Source: a virus | UHGV virus genome: UHGV-0124605 | DNA length: 19,203 nt | Reading direction: 5' to 3' (one strand) | Part shown: positions 1,098 to 16,186 of the stretch, piece by piece | Numbering within the stretch: position 1 is the stretch's first letter | How the letters are laid out: each line of letters opens with the position of its first letter | Position numbers and translations under genes: made by a program | The notes under the pieces: generated by a model | What the model saw: the letters and a program-made list of their open reading frames with translations, nothing else | What the model was told of the DNA's origin: nothing | Databases searched by the model: none

Positions 1098-1586
1098 ATG
1101 GCAGCACCAAAGGGCAACCGATTTTGGGAGGCCCGCAGTAGTCATGGGCGAAATCCTAAATTCGAATCGCCTGAGGCGCTGTGGGCTGCTTGTTGTGAAT
1201 ACTTCGAGTGGGTGGAAGCTAACCCGCTATGGGAGATGAAGGCGTTCTCGTATCAGGGTGAAGTGATACAAGAGCCTATCGCCAAGATGCGAGCGATGAC
1301 CATTACCGGCCTCACTCTGTTCATTGATGTGACGCTTGAAACATGGCGCACATATCGCCTGCGAGAAGATTTATCTGAAGTCGTTACGCGAGCAGAACAG
1401 GTCATCTACGACCAGAAATTCTCTGGCGCAGCCGCTGACCTTCTCAACGCTAACATCATCGCCCGTGATTTGGGCCTCAAAGAGCAGTCGCAAGTTGAAG
1501 ACGTGACACCTGATAAGGGAGATCGCGATAAGCGGCGCTCTCGTATCAAGGAGCTATTCAACCGTGGAACTGGACGCGATTCTTGA
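1098..1586 (+). CDS. 3: Terminase small subunit (P22 gp3-like, TerS)
   Basis: Translation from the second ATG ([32 protein letters not shown]...) matches P22 gp3 as recalled, 162 aa. The in-frame ATG at 1092 gives a 164 aa alternative. Contains a pac-like sequence and overlaps the TerL start. Confidence 0.92.
1365..1386 (+). other. Candidate pac (packaging initiation) site, P22-type, inside the TerS gene
   Basis: GAAGATTTATCTGAAGTCGTTA at 1365-1386 matches the 22-bp P22 pac site as I recall it, and lies within gene 3 as in P22. The match is from memory, not verified. Confidence 0.6.
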
Positions 1587-3063
1587 TAACTTGAGCGACG
1601 AAGAGCAAATCGAATTGCTCGAGCTACTCGAAGAAGAAGAGAACTACCGTAACACACACCTGCTATATGAATTTACGCCATACAGCAAACAGCGTGAGTT
1701 CATCGACGCCGGACATGACTATCCAGAGCGATGTTTTATGGCTGGTAACCAGCTTGGTAAGTCATTTACTGGTGCTGCTGAAGTCGCGTTTCACCTTACC
1801 GGGCGTTATCCGGGCACAAAAGGCTATCCTGCTGATGGTAAATATGGCGGTGAGTGGAAAGGTAAGCGTTTCTATGAGCCTGTTGTCTTCTGGATTGGCG
1901 GCGAGACAAACGAGACTGTAACCAAAACGACTCAACGCATCCTGTGCGGTCGTATCGAAGAGAATGATGAGCCTGGCTACGGTTCCATACCGAAAGAAGA
2001 CATCATTAGCTGGAAGAAGTCTCCTTTCTTTCCGAACCTTGTTGATCACCTTCTGGTTAAGCATCACACGGCTGATGGCGTTGAAGATGGCATTTCAATC
2101 TGCTACTTCAAACCATACTCGCAAGGCCGTGCTCGCTGGCAGGGTGACACAATCCACGGCGTGTGGTTTGACGAAGAGCCACCATACAGCATTTATGGCG
2201 AAGGTCTTACCCGTACCAACAAATACGGGCAATTCTCAATTCTGACGTTTACCCCTCTGATGGGGATGTCTGACGTTGTTACCAAGTTCCTGAAGAATCC
2301 CAGCAAGTCGCAGAAAGTGGTCAACATGACCATCTATGACGCTGAGCACTACACCGACGAGCAGAAAGAGCAAATCATCGCATCCTATCCTGAGCATGAG
2401 AGAGAGGCGCGTGCTCGCGGTATTCCTACGATGGGTAGCGGGCGAATCTTCCAGATACCGGAAGAGACGATTAAGTGTCAGCCGTTCGAGTGCCCTGATC
2501 ACTTTTACGTAATTGGCGGTATGGATTTCGGATGGGATCACCCGCAGGCGCAGGTTCAGCTTTGGTGGGATAAGGACGCAGACACAATCTACGTTTCACG
2601 CGTGTGGAAGGCGAAAGAAAAAACAGCCGTTCAGGCGTGGGGAGCCGTTAAATCTTGGGCGCATAAAGTGCCAACCGCATGGCCTCATGACGGAAACCAG
2701 CACGAGAAGGGCGGCGGTGAGCAGCTTAAAGGGCAGTACGCGGACGCTGGTTTTATGATGTTGCAGGAGCATGCGACATGGCCTGATGGCGGTAATGCTG
2801 TTGAGCCTGGCATCACTGAATTGCGCGACATGATGCTCGATGGACGCTTCAAAGTATTCAACACCTGTGAGCCATTCTTTGAGGAGTTCCGCCTCTATCA
2901 CCGTGATGAAAACGGGAAGATCGTCAAGCTTAACGATGACGTTCTCTCAGCCGTTCGCTATGCATACATGATGCGCCGCTTCGCAAAAATGATGCGCGAC
3001 ATCAAAAAACCAAAAGAGAAAAAGATACCAGCCCCAATCAGGCCCATCGCACGGAGAACTTAA
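1564..3063 (+). CDS. 2: Terminase large subunit (P22 gp2-like, TerL)
   Basis: 499 aa, same length as P22 gp2, with N-terminus [27 protein letters not shown] matching from memory. The start codon at 1564-1566 is GTG and overlaps the last 23 nt of TerS. Confidence 0.95.
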
Positions 3064-5229
3064 ATGGCCGACGAAAACAGACTCAATTCCATTCTGTGTA
3101 AGTTTGACGCAGACTGGATGGCGAGCGATGAAGCCAGAACCGAGGCGACAAATGACCTGTATTTTAGCCGAGTGTCGCAATGGGATGACTGGCTATCAAA
3201 CTACACGACCCTGCAATATCGCGGACAATTCGATGTTGTTCGCCCGGTGGTCAGGAAACTGGTCGCAGAGATGCGCCGGAACCCTATCGACGTTCTCTTC
3301 CGACCAAAAGACGGTGCTAATCCTGATGCAGCCGATGTGTTGATGGGGATGTATCGTACTGATATGCGCCATAACACGGCAAAAATTGCCGTTAACGTTG
3401 GCGTTCGTGAGCAGATAGAGTCAGGCGTTGGTGCATGGCGTCTGGTCACGCAGTACGAAGACAACGATCCAACAAGCAACAATCAGGTAATCCGACGCCT
3501 GCCAATCCATGAAGCCTGCTCACACGTCATATGGGACGCCAACAGCAAGCAGATGGATAAGAGCGACGCTAAGCACTGCACGGTGATTAACGCTTTGTCA
3601 CGCAATGGCTGGAAAGAGTTCGCAGAGGATTACGGCATTGATCCTGACACGCTGCCATCTTTCCAGAATCCGAACGATACATGGCTGTTTCCGTGGGTAT
3701 CGAATGATGTCGTCTACGTCGCTGAGTATTACGAGGTAGAAGAGAAGAAGGAGAAAGTCTTCATCTACCGCGACCCGCTGACAGGTGAGCCGGTCAGCTA
3801 TTTCCAGCAGGATATCAAAGACGTCATCGACGACCTGGCTAATCGTGGATTCATTAAGGTAGCAGAGCGTAAGGTCAAGCGTCGGCGTGTGTATAAGTCG
3901 ATCATCACCTGCACGCAGATACTGAAAGACCGCGAGAAGATAGCTGGAGAGCATATCCCAATCGTTCCTGTGTACGGCGAATGGTCATTCGCTGGTGACA
4001 AGGAGTGCTACGAGGGCGTGGTAAGGCTGACGAAAGACGGTCAACGCCTTCGTAACATGATCATGTCGTTCAACGCCGATATTGTTGCTCGTTCACCGAA
4101 GAAGAAACCGACCTTCTTCCCTGAGCAAATCGAAGGCTACGAATACATGTACGGTGGAAATGATGACTATCCGTACTATCTGCAGAACAGGACCGATGAA
4201 AACGGTAACGACCTGCCGATTGGTCCAATCTCCTACATGGAAAACCCTGAAGTGCCGCAAGCCAACGCTTACATGCTTGAGGCTGCCACCAACGCAGTGA
4301 AAGAAGTGGCTAGTCTTGGCGTGGATGCGCAGGCGGCAAATGGTCAGGTCGCTTTCGATACCGTCAATCAACTGAACATGCGGGCAGACCTTGAGACATA
4401 CGTGTTTCAGGATAACCTGGCTACCGCAATGCGACGTGATGGCGAGATTTATGCCTCAATGGTCAACGATATTTATGACGTTCCTCGTCATGTAACGCTG
4501 ACACTTGAAGATGGAAGCGAGAAAGACGTTCAACTCTACGCGCAAGTTGTAGATTACCAGTCCGGTAATGTGGTCACACTCAACGACATTCGCGGTCGCT
4601 ATGAGTGCTATACAGACGTTGGGCCATCCTTCCAGAGCATGAAGGAACAGAACCGCGCAGAGATTCAGGAATTGCTCACTAAGGTTCCGCAAGGTACTCC
4701 AGAGTTCCAGATGCTGATGCTGCAATACTTCACGCTGCTTGACGGTAAAGGCGTCGAGATGATGCGAGAGTACGCGAACAAGCAACTGGTGATGATGGGG
4801 CTTAAGAAACCAGAAACACCTGAAGAGATGGAGATGGTACAGCAGGCTCAACAGCAGCCGCAGCAGCCATCAGCAGAGCAAATTCAGGCGCAGGGTATCC
4901 TTCTGCAAGGTCAGGCTGAATTGCTCAAGGCAGAGAACCAACAGGCGCAGATTCAGGTTGAAGCTGCCAAGGTTGAAGCCCAAAACCAACTCAACGCCGC
5001 GAAGATTGCAGAAATCTTCAACAATATGGACCTCGACAAGCAGGCAGAACTGCGTGAGTACCTCAAGCTCGTAGGTCAATTCCAGCAACAGCGCAGCAAA
5101 GATGCTCGTGCTAACGCTGAGTTGCTTCTTAAAGATGCAGACCAGACTCATTCACAACGCATGGATTTCGCGAATCTTATGCGCCAAGTTCAAATCCCCT
5201 CCGGCGGAGTAGCCGAGACACCTCAATAA
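3064..5229 (+). CDS. 1: Portal protein (P22 gp1-like)
   Basis: 721 aa (P22 gp1 is about 725). Extensive recalled identity to P22 portal, e.g. RVSQWDDWL..., [16 protein letters not shown]..., [27 protein letters not shown]..., and a Q-rich C-terminal barrel region. ATG at 3064 directly follows the TerL TAA. Confidence 0.97.
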
Positions 5230-5242
5230 GAGAGAGTTAATC

Positions 5243-6154
5243 ATGAACCCAACCACCGACATTCAGACTTCTGAAGAATTAACCCTGCCCGGCAATCATG
5301 CAGCGGCATCTGCTGATGGCTTAGTTGTCGATAATGCCAACGACAACGCAGGTCAGGAAGAAGGCTTCGAGATTGTCCTGAAAGACGATGAGAAACCAAA
5401 ACAAGACCCGGCAACTAATGCTGAATTTGCCCGTCGCCGCATCGAACGCAAACGCCAGCGTGAGCTTGAGCAGCAGATGGAAGCGGTTAAGCGTGGAGAG
5501 TTGCCGGAGCACCTGCGGGTGAACCCTGAGTTACCAAAACAACCAGACCCTAACGATTATCTTTCCGAAGATGCACTGGCTAAGTACGACTATGACCATA
5601 GCCGCGCACTGGCTGCCTTCCAGCAGGCAAACAGTGAATGGCAGATCAAGGCTATGGACGCACGAAGCCAGGCTGTCGCCGAGCAGGGTCGCAAAACTCA
5701 GGAGTTCACCCAGCAATCAGCGCAATACGTCGAGGCAGCCCGTAAGCACTACGACGCAGCGGAAAAGCTCAATATCCCTGACTATCAGGAGAAAGAGGAC
5801 GCATTCATGCAACTGGTGCCGCCAGCAGTCGGTGCCGACATCATGCGCCTCTTCCCGGAGAAATCCGCTGCTCTCATGTATCACCTTGGTGCTAATCCTG
5901 AGAAAACACGCCAGTTGCTGGCGATGGACGGGCAATCCGCGCTGATTGAACTCACTCGACTGTCAGAACGTTTAACTCTCAAGCCTCGAGCCAAGCCTGT
6001 TTCAGAAGCCCCGTTACCTGATGAACCCATTCAGGGGCACGCTGTTGCTGCAAATATCTCTGCGATTGAAAAGCAGATGGAGGCGGCAGCAAGCAAAGGG
6101 GATGTAGAGACGTACCGCAAGCTCAAGGCGCAACTGAATAAAGGAATTCGATAA
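5243..6154 (+). CDS. 8: Scaffolding protein (P22 gp8-like)
   Basis: 303 aa, same length as P22 gp8. Recalled matches include [21 protein letters not shown] and the C-terminal coat-binding helix-turn-helix region [14 protein letters not shown]. Stop overlaps the coat ATG (TAATG). Confidence 0.93.
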
Positions 6155-7449
6155 TGGCATTAAATGAAGGTCAACTGGTCACGTATGCTCTGGATGAAAT
6201 CATCGAAACCGTCCAGAACCTGACGCCAATGGCGTCCAAAGTGACAAAATACACCCCTCCGGCAGAATCCATGCAACGTTCAAGCAACACCGTGTGGATG
6301 CCTGTTGAGCAGGAAGCGCCAACCCAGACTGGCTGGGATTTAACTGGCAGCGCAACCGGGATTCTGGAACTCTCCGTGAAATGCAACATGGGCGATCCGG
6401 ATAACGATTTCTTCGAGCTTCGTGCAGATGACCTGCGTGATGAGCGTTCTTACCGTCGCCGCATCCAGGCATCCGCCAAAAAACTGGCGAATAACATTGA
6501 GTCAGCAATTGCCAAACAGGCAACCGAAATGGGCTCACTTGTTGTTCACGATACCCGCGCAATTGGTCCATCTACTGGTCTGTCTGGATGGGATTTTGTT
6601 TCTGATGCAGAGCGCCTGATGTTCTCCCGTGAGCTAAACCGCGATATGGGCATCAGTTACTTCCTGAACCCAGACGATTACCGCAAAGCAGGCCGCAATC
6701 TGGTAGATGGTGACATCTTCGGTCGCGTTCCTGAAGAAGCGTATCGCAACGGTACTATTCAGCGTCAGATTGCTGGCTTTGATGAAATTCTTCGTTCACC
6801 GAAACTTCCGGCAGTTACCAAGTCAACCGCTACTGGTGTAACTGTTTCTGGTGCGCAGAAGTTTAAGCCGCAGGCATACACCCTTGATACCGATGGTAAC
6901 AAAGAGAACGTCGACAACCGTGTTGCAACGGTGACCGTATCCTCCACCACCGGATTTAAGCGCGGCGACAAAATAAGCTTCACTGGTGTGAAGTTCCTGT
7001 CTCAGATGGCGAAGAATGTGCTGACTGATGACGCGACTTTCTCAATCACCCGTGTGATCGATAGTACTCACATCGAAATCACGCCGAAGCCGATTGCGCT
7101 GGATGACGCGTCACTGACAAAAGAAGAGAAGGCTTACGCTAACGTAAACACCTCTCTTGCTGATACCACTCCGGTAAACGTTCTGAACGTGGCAACAACC
7201 ACCGCTAACGTGTTCTGGGCTGATGACTCAATCCGTCTGCTATCTCAGCCGATCCCGGTAACCCATGAACTGTTTGCTGGCATGAAAACGTCTTCCTTCA
7301 GCATTCCTGGTATTGGTGTTAACGGCATCTTCGCAACGCAGGGTGATATCAACACTCTGTCTGGTAAGTGCCGTATTGCTGTGTGGTATTCAGCATGTGC
7401 TGTACGACCAGAGGCAATTGGTGTTGGTCTGCCTAACCAGACTGCGTGA
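6154..7449 (+). CDS. 5: Major capsid (coat) protein (P22 gp5-like, HK97 fold)
   Basis: 431 aa (P22 gp5 is 430). MALNEGQ...[20 protein letters not shown]...RGDKISF.GVKFL.QMAKNVL...[12 protein letters not shown] matches P22 coat from memory. Confidence 0.97.
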
Positions 7450-7455
7450 TAACCA

Positions 7456-7480
7456 GAGGGAGCTTCGGCTCCCTTTTTTA
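7456..7480 (+). terminator. Rho-independent terminator-like hairpin just after the coat gene
   Basis: GGGAGC (7458-7463), loop TTCG, GCTCCC (7468-7473), then TTTTTT (7474-7479). A GC-rich perfect stem with a T-tract, 7 nt after the coat stop. Likely a partial terminator or RNA-stability element that raises coat/scaffold stoichiometry. Confidence 0.6.
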
Positions 7481-7493
7481 TCTGGAGACAAAC

Positions 7494-7724
7494 ATGACAC
7501 ACATGATCTTTCGTCATGGCGACATGAAGAAGTGGAAAGGCGTTGGCTACGACTTTGAAATCGTGAAAGCCGAAGAGATTCAGGAATATCTGGATGCTGG
7601 TTGGTTTGCACATCCAGATGACCTTCTTAAGGATGTTGCAGAGCCAGAGCCAGAAGAAAAACAGCGTAAAAAGCCTGGTCGAAAACCTAAGGCGGCAGCA
7701 GATGAACCTGACAACGAAGGGTGA
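7494..7724 (+). CDS. Hypothetical small charged protein (76 aa) between coat and gp4
   Basis: ATG at 7494 preceded by GGAG (7484-7487). The C-terminus is highly charged ([26 protein letters not shown]). Overlaps the gp4 start by 23 nt in another frame. No homolog recognised. Confidence 0.45.
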
Positions 7725-8202
7725 TTTAGTTCTTGCGGCATTACGTAAGCTCGGTGTGGCATCAAATGCCACGTTAACAGATGTCGAACCGCAGTCTATG
7801 GAAGACGGCGTCAACGACCTTGAAATGATGATGGCTGAATGGCTTGGCGGTGATGCGTCACCTGGTATCAACGTTGGCTACATTTTTGCTGATGCAGATG
7901 TTGCTCCGGATCCGGGCGATGAGCACGGTTTATCAAATAACGCTATCAATGCCGTCATTTTCAACCTTGCCTGCCGCATTGCTCCAGATTATGCGCTGGA
8001 AGCGTCTGCAAAACTTATAACCACTGCCAGATACGGGAAAGAGCGACTCGTCAAACTGTCTGCAATGGACAGAGCAAAAGCCGCTAAATGTAAGTCCGGT
8101 TATCCAAACCGTATGCCTGTTGGTAGCGGTAACCAGTTGGCGAAGTGGAATGGTTGGAATTACTTCCACCGAAAGGAACCTTGCGATAACGGGAGCGAAT
8201 AA
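7702..8202 (+). CDS. 4: Head-tail adaptor / head completion protein (P22 gp4-like)
   Basis: 166 aa from the ATG at 7702, the same length as P22 gp4. [28 protein letters not shown]...DLE.MMAEW and [16 protein letters not shown] match from memory. The ORF-track upstream extension to 7594 is probably not translated. Confidence 0.9.
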
Positions 8203-9620
8203 TGCCGATTCAGCAACTTCCGCTTATGAAAGGTGTCGGCAAAGACTTCCGAAACGCCGACTATATCGACTATCTGCCAGTGAATATGTTGGCTACACCC
8301 AAAGAAATCCTTAACAGCAGCGGATATCTTCGCTCATTCCCGGGCATTGCCAAACGTTCTGATGTGAATGGTGTATCTCGAGGCGTCGAGTACAACATGG
8401 CGCAGAGTGCTGTTTATCGCGTGTGTGGTGGCAAGCTGTACAAAGGAGAAAGTGAAGTCGGTGACGTTGCCGGAAGTGGTCGCGTATCAATGGCGCATGG
8501 TCGGACATCACAGGCGGTAGGGGTTAACGGGAAACTGGTCGAGTATCGCTATGATGGCACGGTTAAAACCGTCTCAAACTGGCCTACAGACAGCGGATTC
8601 ACTCAGTATGAGTTAGGTTCAGTTCGCGACATTACGCGCTTGCGTGGGCGTTATGCGTGGTCAAAAGACGGTACTGATTCATGGTTCATCACTGACCTTG
8701 AAGACGAATCTCATCCTGACCGTTACAGCGCACAATATCGTGCCGAGTCTCAGCCTGACGGAATCATCGGCATCGGAACATGGCGAGACTTCATCGTCTG
8801 CTTTGGTTCATCGACGATTGAATATTTCTCCCTGACTGGTGCAACCACCGTTGGTGCTGCTTTGTATGTCGCACAGCCATCACTGATGGTGCAGAAAGGC
8901 ATTGCCGGGACTTACTGCAAAACGCCATTCGCTGATTCGTATGCGTTCATCAGCAATCCGGCAACAGGTGCGCCGTCTGTGTACATCATCGGTTCCGGTC
9001 AGGTATCACCAATCGCCAGCGCGAGCATTGAGAAAATACTACGCTCCTACACTGCTGATGAACTGGCTGATGGCGTGATGGAATCGTTGCGGTTTGATGC
9101 TCATGAGTTGCTGATTATCCACCTTCCGCGCCATGTTCTCGTGTACGACGCATCTTCAAGCGCTAATGGTCCGCAATGGTGTGTGCTGAAAACAGGCCTG
9201 TATGACGATGTGTACCGCGCTATCGACTTCATTTACGAAGGCAATCAGATAACGTGCGGAGATAAGCTGGAATCGGTTACCGGCAAATTGCAGTTCGATA
9301 TCAGCAGCCAGTACGACAAGCAGCAGGAACACCTGCTGTTTACTCCGTTGTTCAAAGCGGATAACGCCAGATGCTTCGATCTGGAGGTGGAATCATCCAC
9401 TGGCGTAGCTCAGTACGCCGATCGACTGTTCCTCTCTGCAACCACTGACGGAATCAATTACGGGCGTGAGCAGATGATTGAGCAGAATGAACCGTTCGTT
9501 TACGACAAACGCGTTTTGTGGAAGAAAGTAGGGCGCATCAGGAAAAACATTGGTTTCAAATTGCGCGTTATCACGAAGTCACCTGTAACTCTGTCTGGCT
9601 GCCAGATAAGGATTGAGTAA
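8202..9620 (+). CDS. 10: Tail accessory / packaged-DNA stabilization protein (P22 gp10-like)
   Basis: 472 aa, the same length as P22 gp10, in the syntenic position between gp4 and the tail needle. Start overlaps the gp4 stop (TAATG). Confidence 0.88.
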
Positions 9621-10573
9621 TGGCTGATTCGAATCTCAATGAGCCAGTAATCATCCAGGCTACGCGGCTCGATACATCAGTCCTTCCACGCAATATCTTC
9701 TCTCAGTCGTATCTGCTTTACGTTATTGCACAGGGTACTGATGTTGGTAATGTGGCTAACAAGGCCAACGAAGCAGGGAAGGGGGCTTATGATGCACAGG
9801 TGAAGAATGATGAGCAGGATGTCACCCTTGCAGACCATGAATCCAGAATTGCTGCTGCTGAAGCAACTCTCGTCAATCATGAACATAGAATCGCAGCAGC
9901 GGAAAGCACTCTTGCAGATCATGAAACAAGGATTACGGCTGCCGAAACAGAGCTGGCTGATCACGAGACGCGAATTGCTGCCAATGAATCTGAGTTAGCA
10001 AACCATGATGCGCGAATAACTCAGAATACAACCGATATCAACGCACTTGATACCAGGCTCACAGCGGCAGAGGGAAGTATTTCGACGCTACAAAGCACAG
10101 TTGGTGATCACTCAACAAGAATATCTGCGCTTGAGTATGCCACCACGCGCAAGAAATCAGAGGTTGTTTACTCAGGAGTATCGGTAACCATTCCAACAAC
10201 GCCGACCAACCTTGTTAGCCTGCTGAAAACGCTCACGCCGTCATCCGGGACGTTGGCACCATTCTTCGATACTGATAACAACAAGATGGTTGTGTTCAAC
10301 GAGAATAAAACGCTGTTCTTCAAGTTGTCTATTGTCGGGACGTGGCCCAGCGGAACCGCCAACAGATCAATGCAACTAACCTTTTCCGGCTCTGTTCCTG
10401 ACACACTTGTGAGCAGTCGTAATGCGGCGACAACAACCGATAACATCCTGTTAGCTACGTTCTTCAGCGTGGATAAAGACGGCTTTCTTGCCACAAATGG
10501 CAGTACGTTAACCATTCAGTCAAATGGTGCGGCGTTTACTGCCACAACCATCAAGATAATCGCGGAGCAGTAA
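9620..10573 (+). CDS. 26: Tail needle / cell-envelope-penetrating plug protein (P22 gp26-like) with extended coiled coil and distinct C-terminal domain
   Basis: N-terminus [43 protein letters not shown]... matches the gp26 N-terminal tail-hub-binding region from memory. It is followed by 14-residue tandem repeats and a non-P22 C-terminal region. 317 aa versus about 233 in P22. Confidence 0.9.
9827..10036 (+). repeat. In-frame tandem 42-bp (14-codon) repeats encoding the needle coiled coil
   Basis: Five clear units: [14 protein letters not shown] / [14 protein letters not shown] / [14 protein letters not shown] / [14 protein letters not shown] / [14 protein letters not shown]. Degenerate units continue to about 10140. 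Confidence 0.75.
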
Positions 10574-15735: not shown

Positions 15736-16155
15736 ATGAAGAGGATTATCGGCGTCGTTGCTGGCGCTATATTGTTATCTGGGTGCGCAACTATTGTTGG
15801 TGACGAAACACAGCTTGTGCAAGTGAACAGCAATCCTTCCGGCGCGAGCTTTAAGGTAAAAGACGAATCAGGCGTGATTGTTGCGCAAGGTAAGACCCCG
15901 CAAGGAGTAACTCTTGCCAAGTCAGATGGTAGTTATTTTGGCAAAAAGAGCTACCAGATCACTATGGAGAAGGATGGGTACGAACCAGTTACCCTGCCAA
16001 TCAAAGCCAATGCTAATGGTTGGTATATTGGTGGAAACCTTGTGTTTGGTGGGTTAATTGGTTGGCTTGCTGTAGATCCATTTAATGGCGGGATGTATAC
16101 CTTGAAGCCTAAAGAGGCAAATGCATCCCTTATACCGTCCACAAAGCAAGACTAG
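15736..16155 (+). CDS. Predicted lipoprotein (139 aa) with PEGA-like beta domain and Gly-rich hydrophobic C-terminal segment, function unknown
   Basis: Signal peptide MKRIIGVVAGAILLSGC with lipobox LSG|C. NSNPSGASFKV...GKTPQGVTL...GYEPV resembles a PEGA-type domain. C-terminal WYIGGNLVFGGLIGWLAVDPFNGGMY is glycine-zipper-like. Followed by a terminator hairpin. Confidence 0.7.
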   Translation: MKRIIGVVAGAILLSGCATIVGDETQLVQVNSNPSGASFKVKDESGVIVAQGKTPQGVTLAKSDGSYFGKKSYQITMEKDGYEPVTLPIKANANGWYIGGNLVFGGLIGWLAVDPFNGGMYTLKPKEANASLIPSTKQD

Positions 16156-16162
16156 TAAATGG

Positions 16163-16186
16163 AACCCACCATCAGGTGGGTTTTTT
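16163..16186 (+). terminator. Rho-independent terminator hairpin between the convergent lipoprotein and mnt genes
   Basis: AACCCACC (16163-16170), loop ATCA, GGTGGGTT (16175-16182), then TTTT. The downstream arm overlaps the last codons and stop of mnt on the opposite strand. Confidence 0.6.

Follow-up and report, generated by a model that had tools for sequence, protein, structure and literature searches.

The terminator-like hairpin behind the coat gene of a P22-like Escherichia coli phage and its counterparts in nearly all P22-type phages

The plus strand of the DNA analysed here, a stretch of 19,203 nucleotides of the virus genome UHGV-0124605 (“the window”), carries the P22-type late operon of a P22-like E. 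coli phage, and directly behind its coat gene lies a short RNA hairpin followed by a run of U. What would such a structure do in the middle of a late operon with essential genes still to come: stop the polymerase, protect the message upstream of it, or neither? The order of the features, all on the plus strand, is as follows:

1092–1586, +: small terminase (PF16677)
1564–3063, +: large terminase
3064–5229, +: portal (PF16510)
5243–6154, +: scaffold (PF09306)
6154–7449, +: coat (major capsid) protein, 431 aa, stop codon TGA at 7447–7449 (PF11651 P22_CoatProtein, E = 3e-165)
7455–7476, +: RNA hairpin (from the sequence, its folds, its rank as the top terminator-like site of the window, and positional and structural conservation)
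7474–7481, +: U-tract TTTTTTAT, directly 3′ of the G-C core (from the sequence)
7484–7496, +: Shine-Dalgarno sequence GGAG (7484–7487) and ATG (7494–7496) of the next cistron (from the sequence)
7494–7724, +: small ORF, 76 aa, in the position of P22 orf69 (phrog_1175, E = 2.3e-37)
7702–8202, +: gp4 homologue, head-tail adaptor (PF11650 P22_Tail-4, E = 1.1e-58; phrog_637)
8202–9620, +: gp10
9620–10573, +: tail needle
3′ of the tail needle, +: gp14, the ejection proteins and the tailspike gene, which continues past the end of the window

The nearest phages are the Lederbergvirus-like E. coli phages IME10, APC_JM3.2 and CurroJimenez_Bas106, with 98% DNA identity around the hairpin; P22 stands at about 74%. 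At the protein level the coat is 98.8% identical to those of IME10 and CurroJimenez_Bas106 and 73% identical to those of P22 and L. The tail-needle gene (9620–10573) has an Sf6-type C-terminal knob domain (PF16532, E = 7e-106), and in CurroJimenez_Bas106, the nearest relative in other respects, the needle gene is shorter (8523–9224); this difference is another mosaic joint in the late operon.

The late genes are tightly packed. Every junction from gene 3 to gene 16, over about 14 kb, is an overlap or a gap of at most 13 nt, with the single exception of the 44-nt spacer between the coat gene and the small ORF, within which the hairpin lies. The small ORF also matches phrog_3769 with its N-terminus, has no match in Pfam, and is labelled a hypothetical protein in the records of the relatives. 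It overlaps by 23 nt the gp4 homologue, the first essential gene 3′ of the hairpin, and none of the essential downstream genes (the homologues of 4, 10, 26, 14, 7, 20 and 16) has a promoter-sized spacer in front of it. The late promoter and the Q gene lie outside the window; a Q-like antiterminator gene is known from the closest complete relative (98% identical here), where it is found just upstream of the tRNA, lysis and head genes.

The core of the hairpin consists of GGGAGC (7458–7463), a UUCG loop (7464–7467) and GCUCCC (7468–7473), that is, six perfect Watson-Crick pairs, five G-C and one A-U. Three added pairs, A7455-U7476, G7456-U7475 and A7457-U7474, extend it to nine pairs spanning 7455–7476, so that the stem starts 5–8 nt 3′ of the coat stop depending on where it is taken to begin. 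The tail is an uninterrupted U6 (T7474–T7479) followed by AT, and its first three U are those that can also pair with A7455–A7457. The loop closure, C7463-UUCG-G7468, is of the C(UUCG)G type, and such hairpins are unusually stable. The first-pass annotation had described a perfect GC-rich stem with a tetraloop and T-tract at 7456–7480, 7 nt after the coat stop and inside the late operon; direct reading of the sequence bears out the structure, and PF11651 together with the other P22-type gene identities bears out the setting.

The folding energy is −14.4 kcal/mol for the 22-nt hairpin and −10.8 kcal/mol for the 16-nt core. In its 61-nt context the fold reaches −21.1 kcal/mol (z = −4.15), a stability seen in 0 of 200 shuffles; the 181-nt context is not unusually stable (z = −1.69), and a larger conserved structure was rejected. 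The element has the anatomy of an intrinsic terminator: a G-C-rich stem and short loop (in the usual ranges of about 5–14 bp and 3–8 nt), a U-tract directly 3′ of the stem (UUUUUUAU, 7474–7481) and an untranslated location 3′ of a stop codon, within the intergenic spacer. It also has the exceptionally stable C(UUCG)G cap expected of an mRNA 3′ stabiliser. A T7-type RNase III site was considered and rejected, such sites needing about 20 bp or more of double-stranded RNA; the stem here has 9 bp, and its weak lower part is not conserved. The terminator score is +32.9 on the plus strand and −25.1 on the minus strand, where the score follows the formula of d’Aubenton-Carafa (1990), used with modern energies, and is indicative only.

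How unusual is this within the window itself? The hairpin ranks top in a generic terminator scan of the whole window, a scan that overall is at chance level (21 sites against 17.5 ± 4.6 expected). Under strict criteria (8 or more pairs, 5 or more of them G-C, and 5 or more T among the 8 nt that follow the last G-C pair) two sites remain on the plus strand, the 7455–7476 hairpin and one at 16165–16180; Markov-1 random sequences of the same length hold 0.21 on average, and 28 of 200 hold at least one. The 16-mer of the hairpin occurs once in the window, even allowing 3 mismatches, and no Rfam family was matched by the whole window at gathering thresholds or by 7350–7600 at E ≤ 1. The single-window evidence is thus only moderately beyond chance, and it is the comparative evidence that is decisive. 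The second strict site is a strong terminator-like hairpin in its own right, ACCCACC-ATCA-GGTGGGT followed by TTTTTTGT on the plus strand, which begins 10 nt after the stop of the ORF at 15736–16155 (phrog_6823), in a variable region between the gene 16 homologue and the tailspike gene.

For the comparison, P22-type coat loci were taken from named phages and from bacterial assemblies, one genome per species, searched with an alignment of ten diverse coat proteins, and a hairpin was counted when it had at least 5 pairs, at least 4 of them G-C, a loop of 3–10 nt, at least 4 T in the next 8 nt and a position no more than 60 nt from the coat stop. A hairpin of this kind, T-rich tail included, was found in 45 of 50 non-identical loci, compared with about 2% of controls put through the same test (35 of 1791 random 60-mers drawn from these loci, and 99 of 5000 shuffles). 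Three further loci carry a G-C hairpin in which the tail is weaker or the loop longer, which raises the number with a G-C hairpin to 48 of 50; it is absent only from a Ralstonia phage, in which the genes overlap, and from one MAG. Coat identity to the window across these loci ranges from about 24% to 99%. The loci come from Enterobacterales, Pseudomonadales, Burkholderiales and other MAGs, and the hosts include Escherichia, Salmonella, Citrobacter, Yersinia, Xenorhabdus, Proteus, Morganella, Pseudomonas, Zhongshania, Burkholderiales and a Victivallales MAG. The indicative terminator score is above zero in 43 of 51 loci (median 17), UUCG is the dominant loop (about 25 of the 43 scoring hairpins), and most homologues share the layout of hairpin, U-tract, Shine-Dalgarno sequence and ATG. 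The sequence between stop and stem cannot be aligned across the family, and its length varies from 5 to 24 nt (median 7), so no fixed stop-to-stem geometry is required.

The stem itself changes while remaining a stem. Among its versions are GGGGC/GCCCC, GGGAGC/GCUCCC, GGGGU/ACCCC, GGGGGC/GCCCCC, GGGGCC/GGCCCC and, inverted in composition, CCCCGC/GCGGGG. When 34 tetraloop sequences are aligned with the loop as anchor, pairing is intact in 169 of the 170 cells of the five core pairs, the lone unpaired cell being a row that MAFFT moved by one column. Compensatory changes are found at several pairs: G-C to A-U in seven sequences, another pair that occurs as A-U, G-C or U-A, and C-G to U-A once. 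Covariation scores 0.233, compared with 0.125 ± 0.015 for shuffles, of which 0 of 500 reach the observed value, and slid registers all score lower. Since its rows were aligned on hairpins already detected, the alignment is biased in favour of the structure, and more weight goes to the positional statistic. The outer three pairs are formed less often, in roughly one third to one half of the sequences. Taking these lines of evidence together, we believe that the element is a selected RNA hairpin of terminator type, with a probability of roughly 0.9.

Two groups of relatives carry variants that deserve mention. In the prophages of E. coli ECMA0423 and S. flexneri SFBU1023 (loci L095 and L096; coat 99% identical), the first position after the stem is changed from T to G (GCTCCCGTTTTT), which takes the indicative terminator score from +33 to −6; this is a natural variant that bears on the role of the U-tract. 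The post-coat hairpin of the Sortsne, Kc237 and ST231-type phages combines a full A-tract with U8 and looks bidirectional (L089 1764–1854, L090 1725–1814, L091 1728–1821, and L131 after the coat stop). In the spacer of about 90 nt found there 3′ of the hairpin, a conserved motif (C)GCTTATACT is followed by CCCGTTAAC (CCCCGAAC in ST231), an arrangement that may represent a terminator plus a restart promoter.

A hairpin in this place is already known: annotations of P22 and its relatives have carried it for about two decades. The hairpin of the window represents, in an E. coli phage, the terminator-like stem-loop found behind the coat gene of nearly all P22-type phages. The P22 records BK000583 and AF527608 contain a “stem_loop” at 6102–6119 directly after gene 5, marked putative, and liken its location to the stem-loops of HK97 and lambda. 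It lies 5–8 nt behind the stop codon of a coat gene with 73% identity, before an orf69-type small ORF and gene 4, with a G-C stem, tetraloop, U-rich tail and Shine-Dalgarno sequence in the same layout. It differs in having the stem GGGGC/GCCCC, a UGCG loop and an interrupted tail (UUUCUUUAU) where the window has GGGAGC/GCUCCC, UUCG and an uninterrupted U6, and on the indicative scale it scores 22.7 against 32.9.

The records of phage L/ST64T and of Emek annotate a terminator, predicted to be rho-independent, at the matching place after the coat gene. In phage L the gene downstream is the long 186-aa allele (see below), and a reverse-strand terminator is annotated too; a bidirectional terminator of this kind was rejected for the window, the minus strand of which has no U-tract. 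Zaworski et al. (2021; PMC8022706) discuss the phage L element as an “intra-operon terminator” whose role they describe as not known, and suggest either partial termination or the stopping of spurious transcription begun without gp23/gp24 antitermination; the candidate functions they consider match those considered here. Experimental mapping of the post-coat hairpin in P22-like phages was not found in the literature searched.

Similar elements occur behind capsid genes that have no detectable sequence relation to the P22-type coat, so that the likeness is one of position and function, with homology not demonstrable. The HK97 record has a putative terminator at 5192–5213 right after gp5 (GGGCGGG-GAAA-CCCGCCC UUUU) and two more flanking the major tail gene, which suggests that such hairpins follow the proteins needed most abundantly. 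In the E–FI spacer of lambda, AUGGCCC-UUCG-GGGCCAU is followed by UGUUUCUCU and then by GGAGGAG..AUG. Both share with the window a G-C stem, a UUCG or GAAA tetraloop, a T-rich tail and the Shine-Dalgarno sequence of the next late gene, all after the major capsid gene, and both late operons are Q-antiterminated.

More distant parallels exist for each of the two possible functions. The Tφ terminator after gene 10 of T7, and the leaky terminators after the coat genes of filamentous phages and phiX174, are likewise inefficient terminators right after the major capsid gene that leave more capsid mRNA than downstream mRNA; they act on a phage RNA polymerase (T7) or on unmodified host polymerase, whereas a Q-modified, termination-resistant polymerase is expected here. 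Stem-loops at 3′ ends protect the upstream mRNA in the malEFG REP sequences, the Rhodobacter puf operon and the T4 intercistronic hairpins, which resemble the present element in being stable intercistronic hairpins 3′ of the more highly expressed cistron, and in the C(UUCG)G motif, and differ from it in that a U-tract is missing or not needed there. The T7 Tφ case is cited within bioRxiv 10.1101/2022.03.18.484859.

What, then, would the hairpin do? Under lambda-type Q proteins, RNA polymerase becomes resistant to intrinsic terminators, and since a Q-like antiterminator is encoded ahead of the late genes in the closest complete relative, the polymerase arriving at the hairpin is expected to be termination-resistant. 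Because of this, and because the essential genes downstream have no room for promoters of their own, termination can be at most partial. On the other hand, the U-tract is conserved, and a U-tract is needed for termination and not for a pure block to exonucleases, which speaks for selection on termination, at least of some polymerases. Protection of the 3′ end of the upstream message fits both the C(UUCG)G cap and the site directly after the gene of the most abundant protein. The reading that we favour, at somewhat better than even odds, is therefore a combined one: a leaky terminator that would mostly be read through by Q-modified polymerase and would also protect the upstream head-gene mRNA. 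In its favour count, too, the like hairpins behind the unrelated capsid genes of lambda and HK97, and the 80 IMG/VR relatives in which the hairpin stays with a 99–100% identical coat gene while the gene behind it alternates between two alleles (see below). The first-pass proposal of an intra-operon terminator or RNA stabiliser survives in this form, with the terminator features of the sequence, the family-wide conservation and the matching ideas for P22, L and HK97 on its side, and with termination reduced to at most a partial event.

According to this combined reading, the hairpin would be transcribed as part of the single late mRNA, and the late polymerase, modified by a protein of the Q/gp23 type, would mostly read through it, so that expression of genes 4 to 16 and of the tailspike continues. 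Termination at the hairpin would be confined to a minority of polymerases and to any that started without Q modification. In the read-through transcripts the hairpin would form behind the polymerase, and endonucleolytic cleavage in the U-rich spacer would turn it into a 3′ cap that blocks 3′-to-5′ exonucleases, whereby the message of the head genes (3, 2, 1, 8, 5) would live longer and be more plentiful than that of the distal genes. Overall, mRNA dosage would fall by a modest step at the boundary between head and tail-accessory genes, in addition to much larger translational differences.

The stoichiometric benefit of such a step is limited, since stabilisation of the upstream message would raise the mRNAs of the low-copy terminase and portal equally. 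The hairpin had been put forward in the first-pass annotation as helping to explain the high molar excess of coat and scaffold over the downstream tail-accessory proteins, an argument that is valid only in part. The excess of coat over portal and terminase is left unexplained by it, because these low-copy genes lie upstream on the same transcript as the coat gene, and translation must therefore set most of the ratios. Two further points weigh on the combined reading: a Q-modified polymerase may ignore the site completely, which would make the partial-termination half wrong, and a ribosome terminating at the coat stop, 5–8 nt from the stem, would cover its 5′ arm, so that on a heavily translated mRNA formation of the hairpin could be suppressed.

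If read-through under Q is near-complete, what remains is a pure mRNA stabiliser or processing boundary, in which the hairpin does nothing but block 3′ exonucleases after cleavage downstream. The Q-like antiterminator of the closest relative and the run of essential downstream genes without promoter spacers speak for this possibility, as does the dominance of C(UUCG)G among the scoring hairpins, this being the extra-stable loop type first described in intercistronic regions of phage T4. The difficulty is the U-tract, which is conserved nearly as well as the stem and is not needed by an exonuclease barrier; it could, however, serve instead as an RNase E site or as an upstream translation enhancer for the next gene. 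We regard the pure stabiliser as unlikely, and as the most serious of the competitors.

Somewhat less probable again is that the hairpin acts as an insulator, stopping non-antiterminated polymerases that come from spurious or secondary promoters in the head cluster, for example in the lysogen, so that the tail and ejection genes are transcribed under Q only. For an unmodified polymerase the hairpin does score as a good terminator. Insulation nevertheless leaves unexplained why the position is constant, exactly after the major capsid gene, and it sits poorly with the HK97 hairpins that flank the major tail gene too and with virulent relatives which, having no lysogeny, retain an even stronger version.

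Translational control was suggested by the minimum-energy folds of the window and of P22; a lower stem would here tie the 3′ end of the coat gene, stop codon included, to the Shine-Dalgarno sequence of the next gene and thereby couple or limit its translation. Both folds pair the coat 3′ end with the Shine-Dalgarno region (in the window, CUGCGUGAUAA with UUAUCUGGAG), and the probability that the Shine-Dalgarno sequence is paired is about 0.7. Over 43 loci, however, this probability runs from 0.07 to 1.0, the partners differ and no lower helix is conserved, so that a sequestering lower stem was rejected as a feature of the family; the patchy occurrence of the outer three pairs points the same way. 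We consider a translational role improbable.

More doubtful still is a linker acting at the level of DNA, namely a short inverted repeat at a mosaic module boundary that serves recombination and has no function as RNA. A scan of IMG/VR with the coat protein returned only coats 99–100% identical, which is uninformative for covariation; in the 80 contigs concerned the hairpin is invariant except for rare changes in the loop or tail, and two alleles follow it, beginning MTHMIF... (76 aa) and MSVMIFQ... (197 aa). Homology to the long-allele contigs extends to window position 7488, within about 10 nt of the U-tract, and restarts at 7636, so that the hairpin lies on the coat side of the joint. Near-identical copies of hairpin and tail are also found behind diverged coats, for example in phage L and two Yersinia prophages. 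A DNA linker fails to account for compensatory changes that preserve pairing and not sequence, for a U-tract present on the plus strand only, and for a break point at the start of the next gene, outside the repeat.

The two alleles form a pattern of their own. The 76-aa ORF at 7494–7724 looks like the short allele of a gene of 186–197 aa (phage L orf186): the first ~45 aa and the last ~28 aa are common to both, and the short form is without a middle domain of about 120 aa. The relation of the 76-aa form to the long allele (L009 2840–3433; L004 1559–2119) mirrors that of P22 orf69 to L orf186. Within the small ORF, APC_JM3.2 and IME10 are 36 bases longer than the window; the additional bases may be a variable tandem repeat, and the APC_JM3.2 record marks a repeat_region at L001 1891–1941 (MG197996 17092–17142), which corresponds to about 7640–7690 of the window.

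Finally, a chance hairpin without function, for which one could cite the 14% of random sequences of window length that hold a strict-criteria site, is effectively refuted by a 90% positional conservation in 50 diverged loci against a 2% background, together with the covariation.

A broader and tentative reading, which we hold at well below even odds, is that a post-capsid hairpin is near-universal in the late operons of tailed phages, independently kept behind P22-, lambda E- and HK97-type capsid genes. Because the hairpin persists in Q-antiterminated operons, its main job would then not be termination; it would be to provide a processed, exonuclease-proof 3′ end that sets the mRNA dosage of the capsid module. 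The strength of the element would be tuned by the U-tract, as exemplified by the T-to-G change right after the stem in some prophages, with a terminator score below zero.

The hairpin is also useful for annotation, since it shows where the coat cistron really ends and the next gene really begins, points on which several public records are wrong. In two of these the gp4 head-tail adaptor (PF11650) is labelled “recombinase RmuC”; in the IME10 record gene 4 begins at an upstream in-frame ATG (202 aa) and the small ORF is omitted; and in Brookers the start of the gp6 CDS runs through the hairpin. The misannotated positions are L001 1989–2489 (MG197996), L086 from 2024 onwards (OL539469) and L002 1884–2489 (NC_019501).

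What is mildly new here is the quantitative survey, which finds a near-universal hairpin behind P22-type coat genes: we found no earlier systematic survey, and the 90% positional conservation holds down to 24% coat identity. The element is a compact, strong candidate for a terminator or stabiliser part, and a natural test case for the behaviour of terminators under Q-type antitermination. If active, it would be a small device by which these phages obtain far more capsid-module than tail-accessory mRNA from one promoter.
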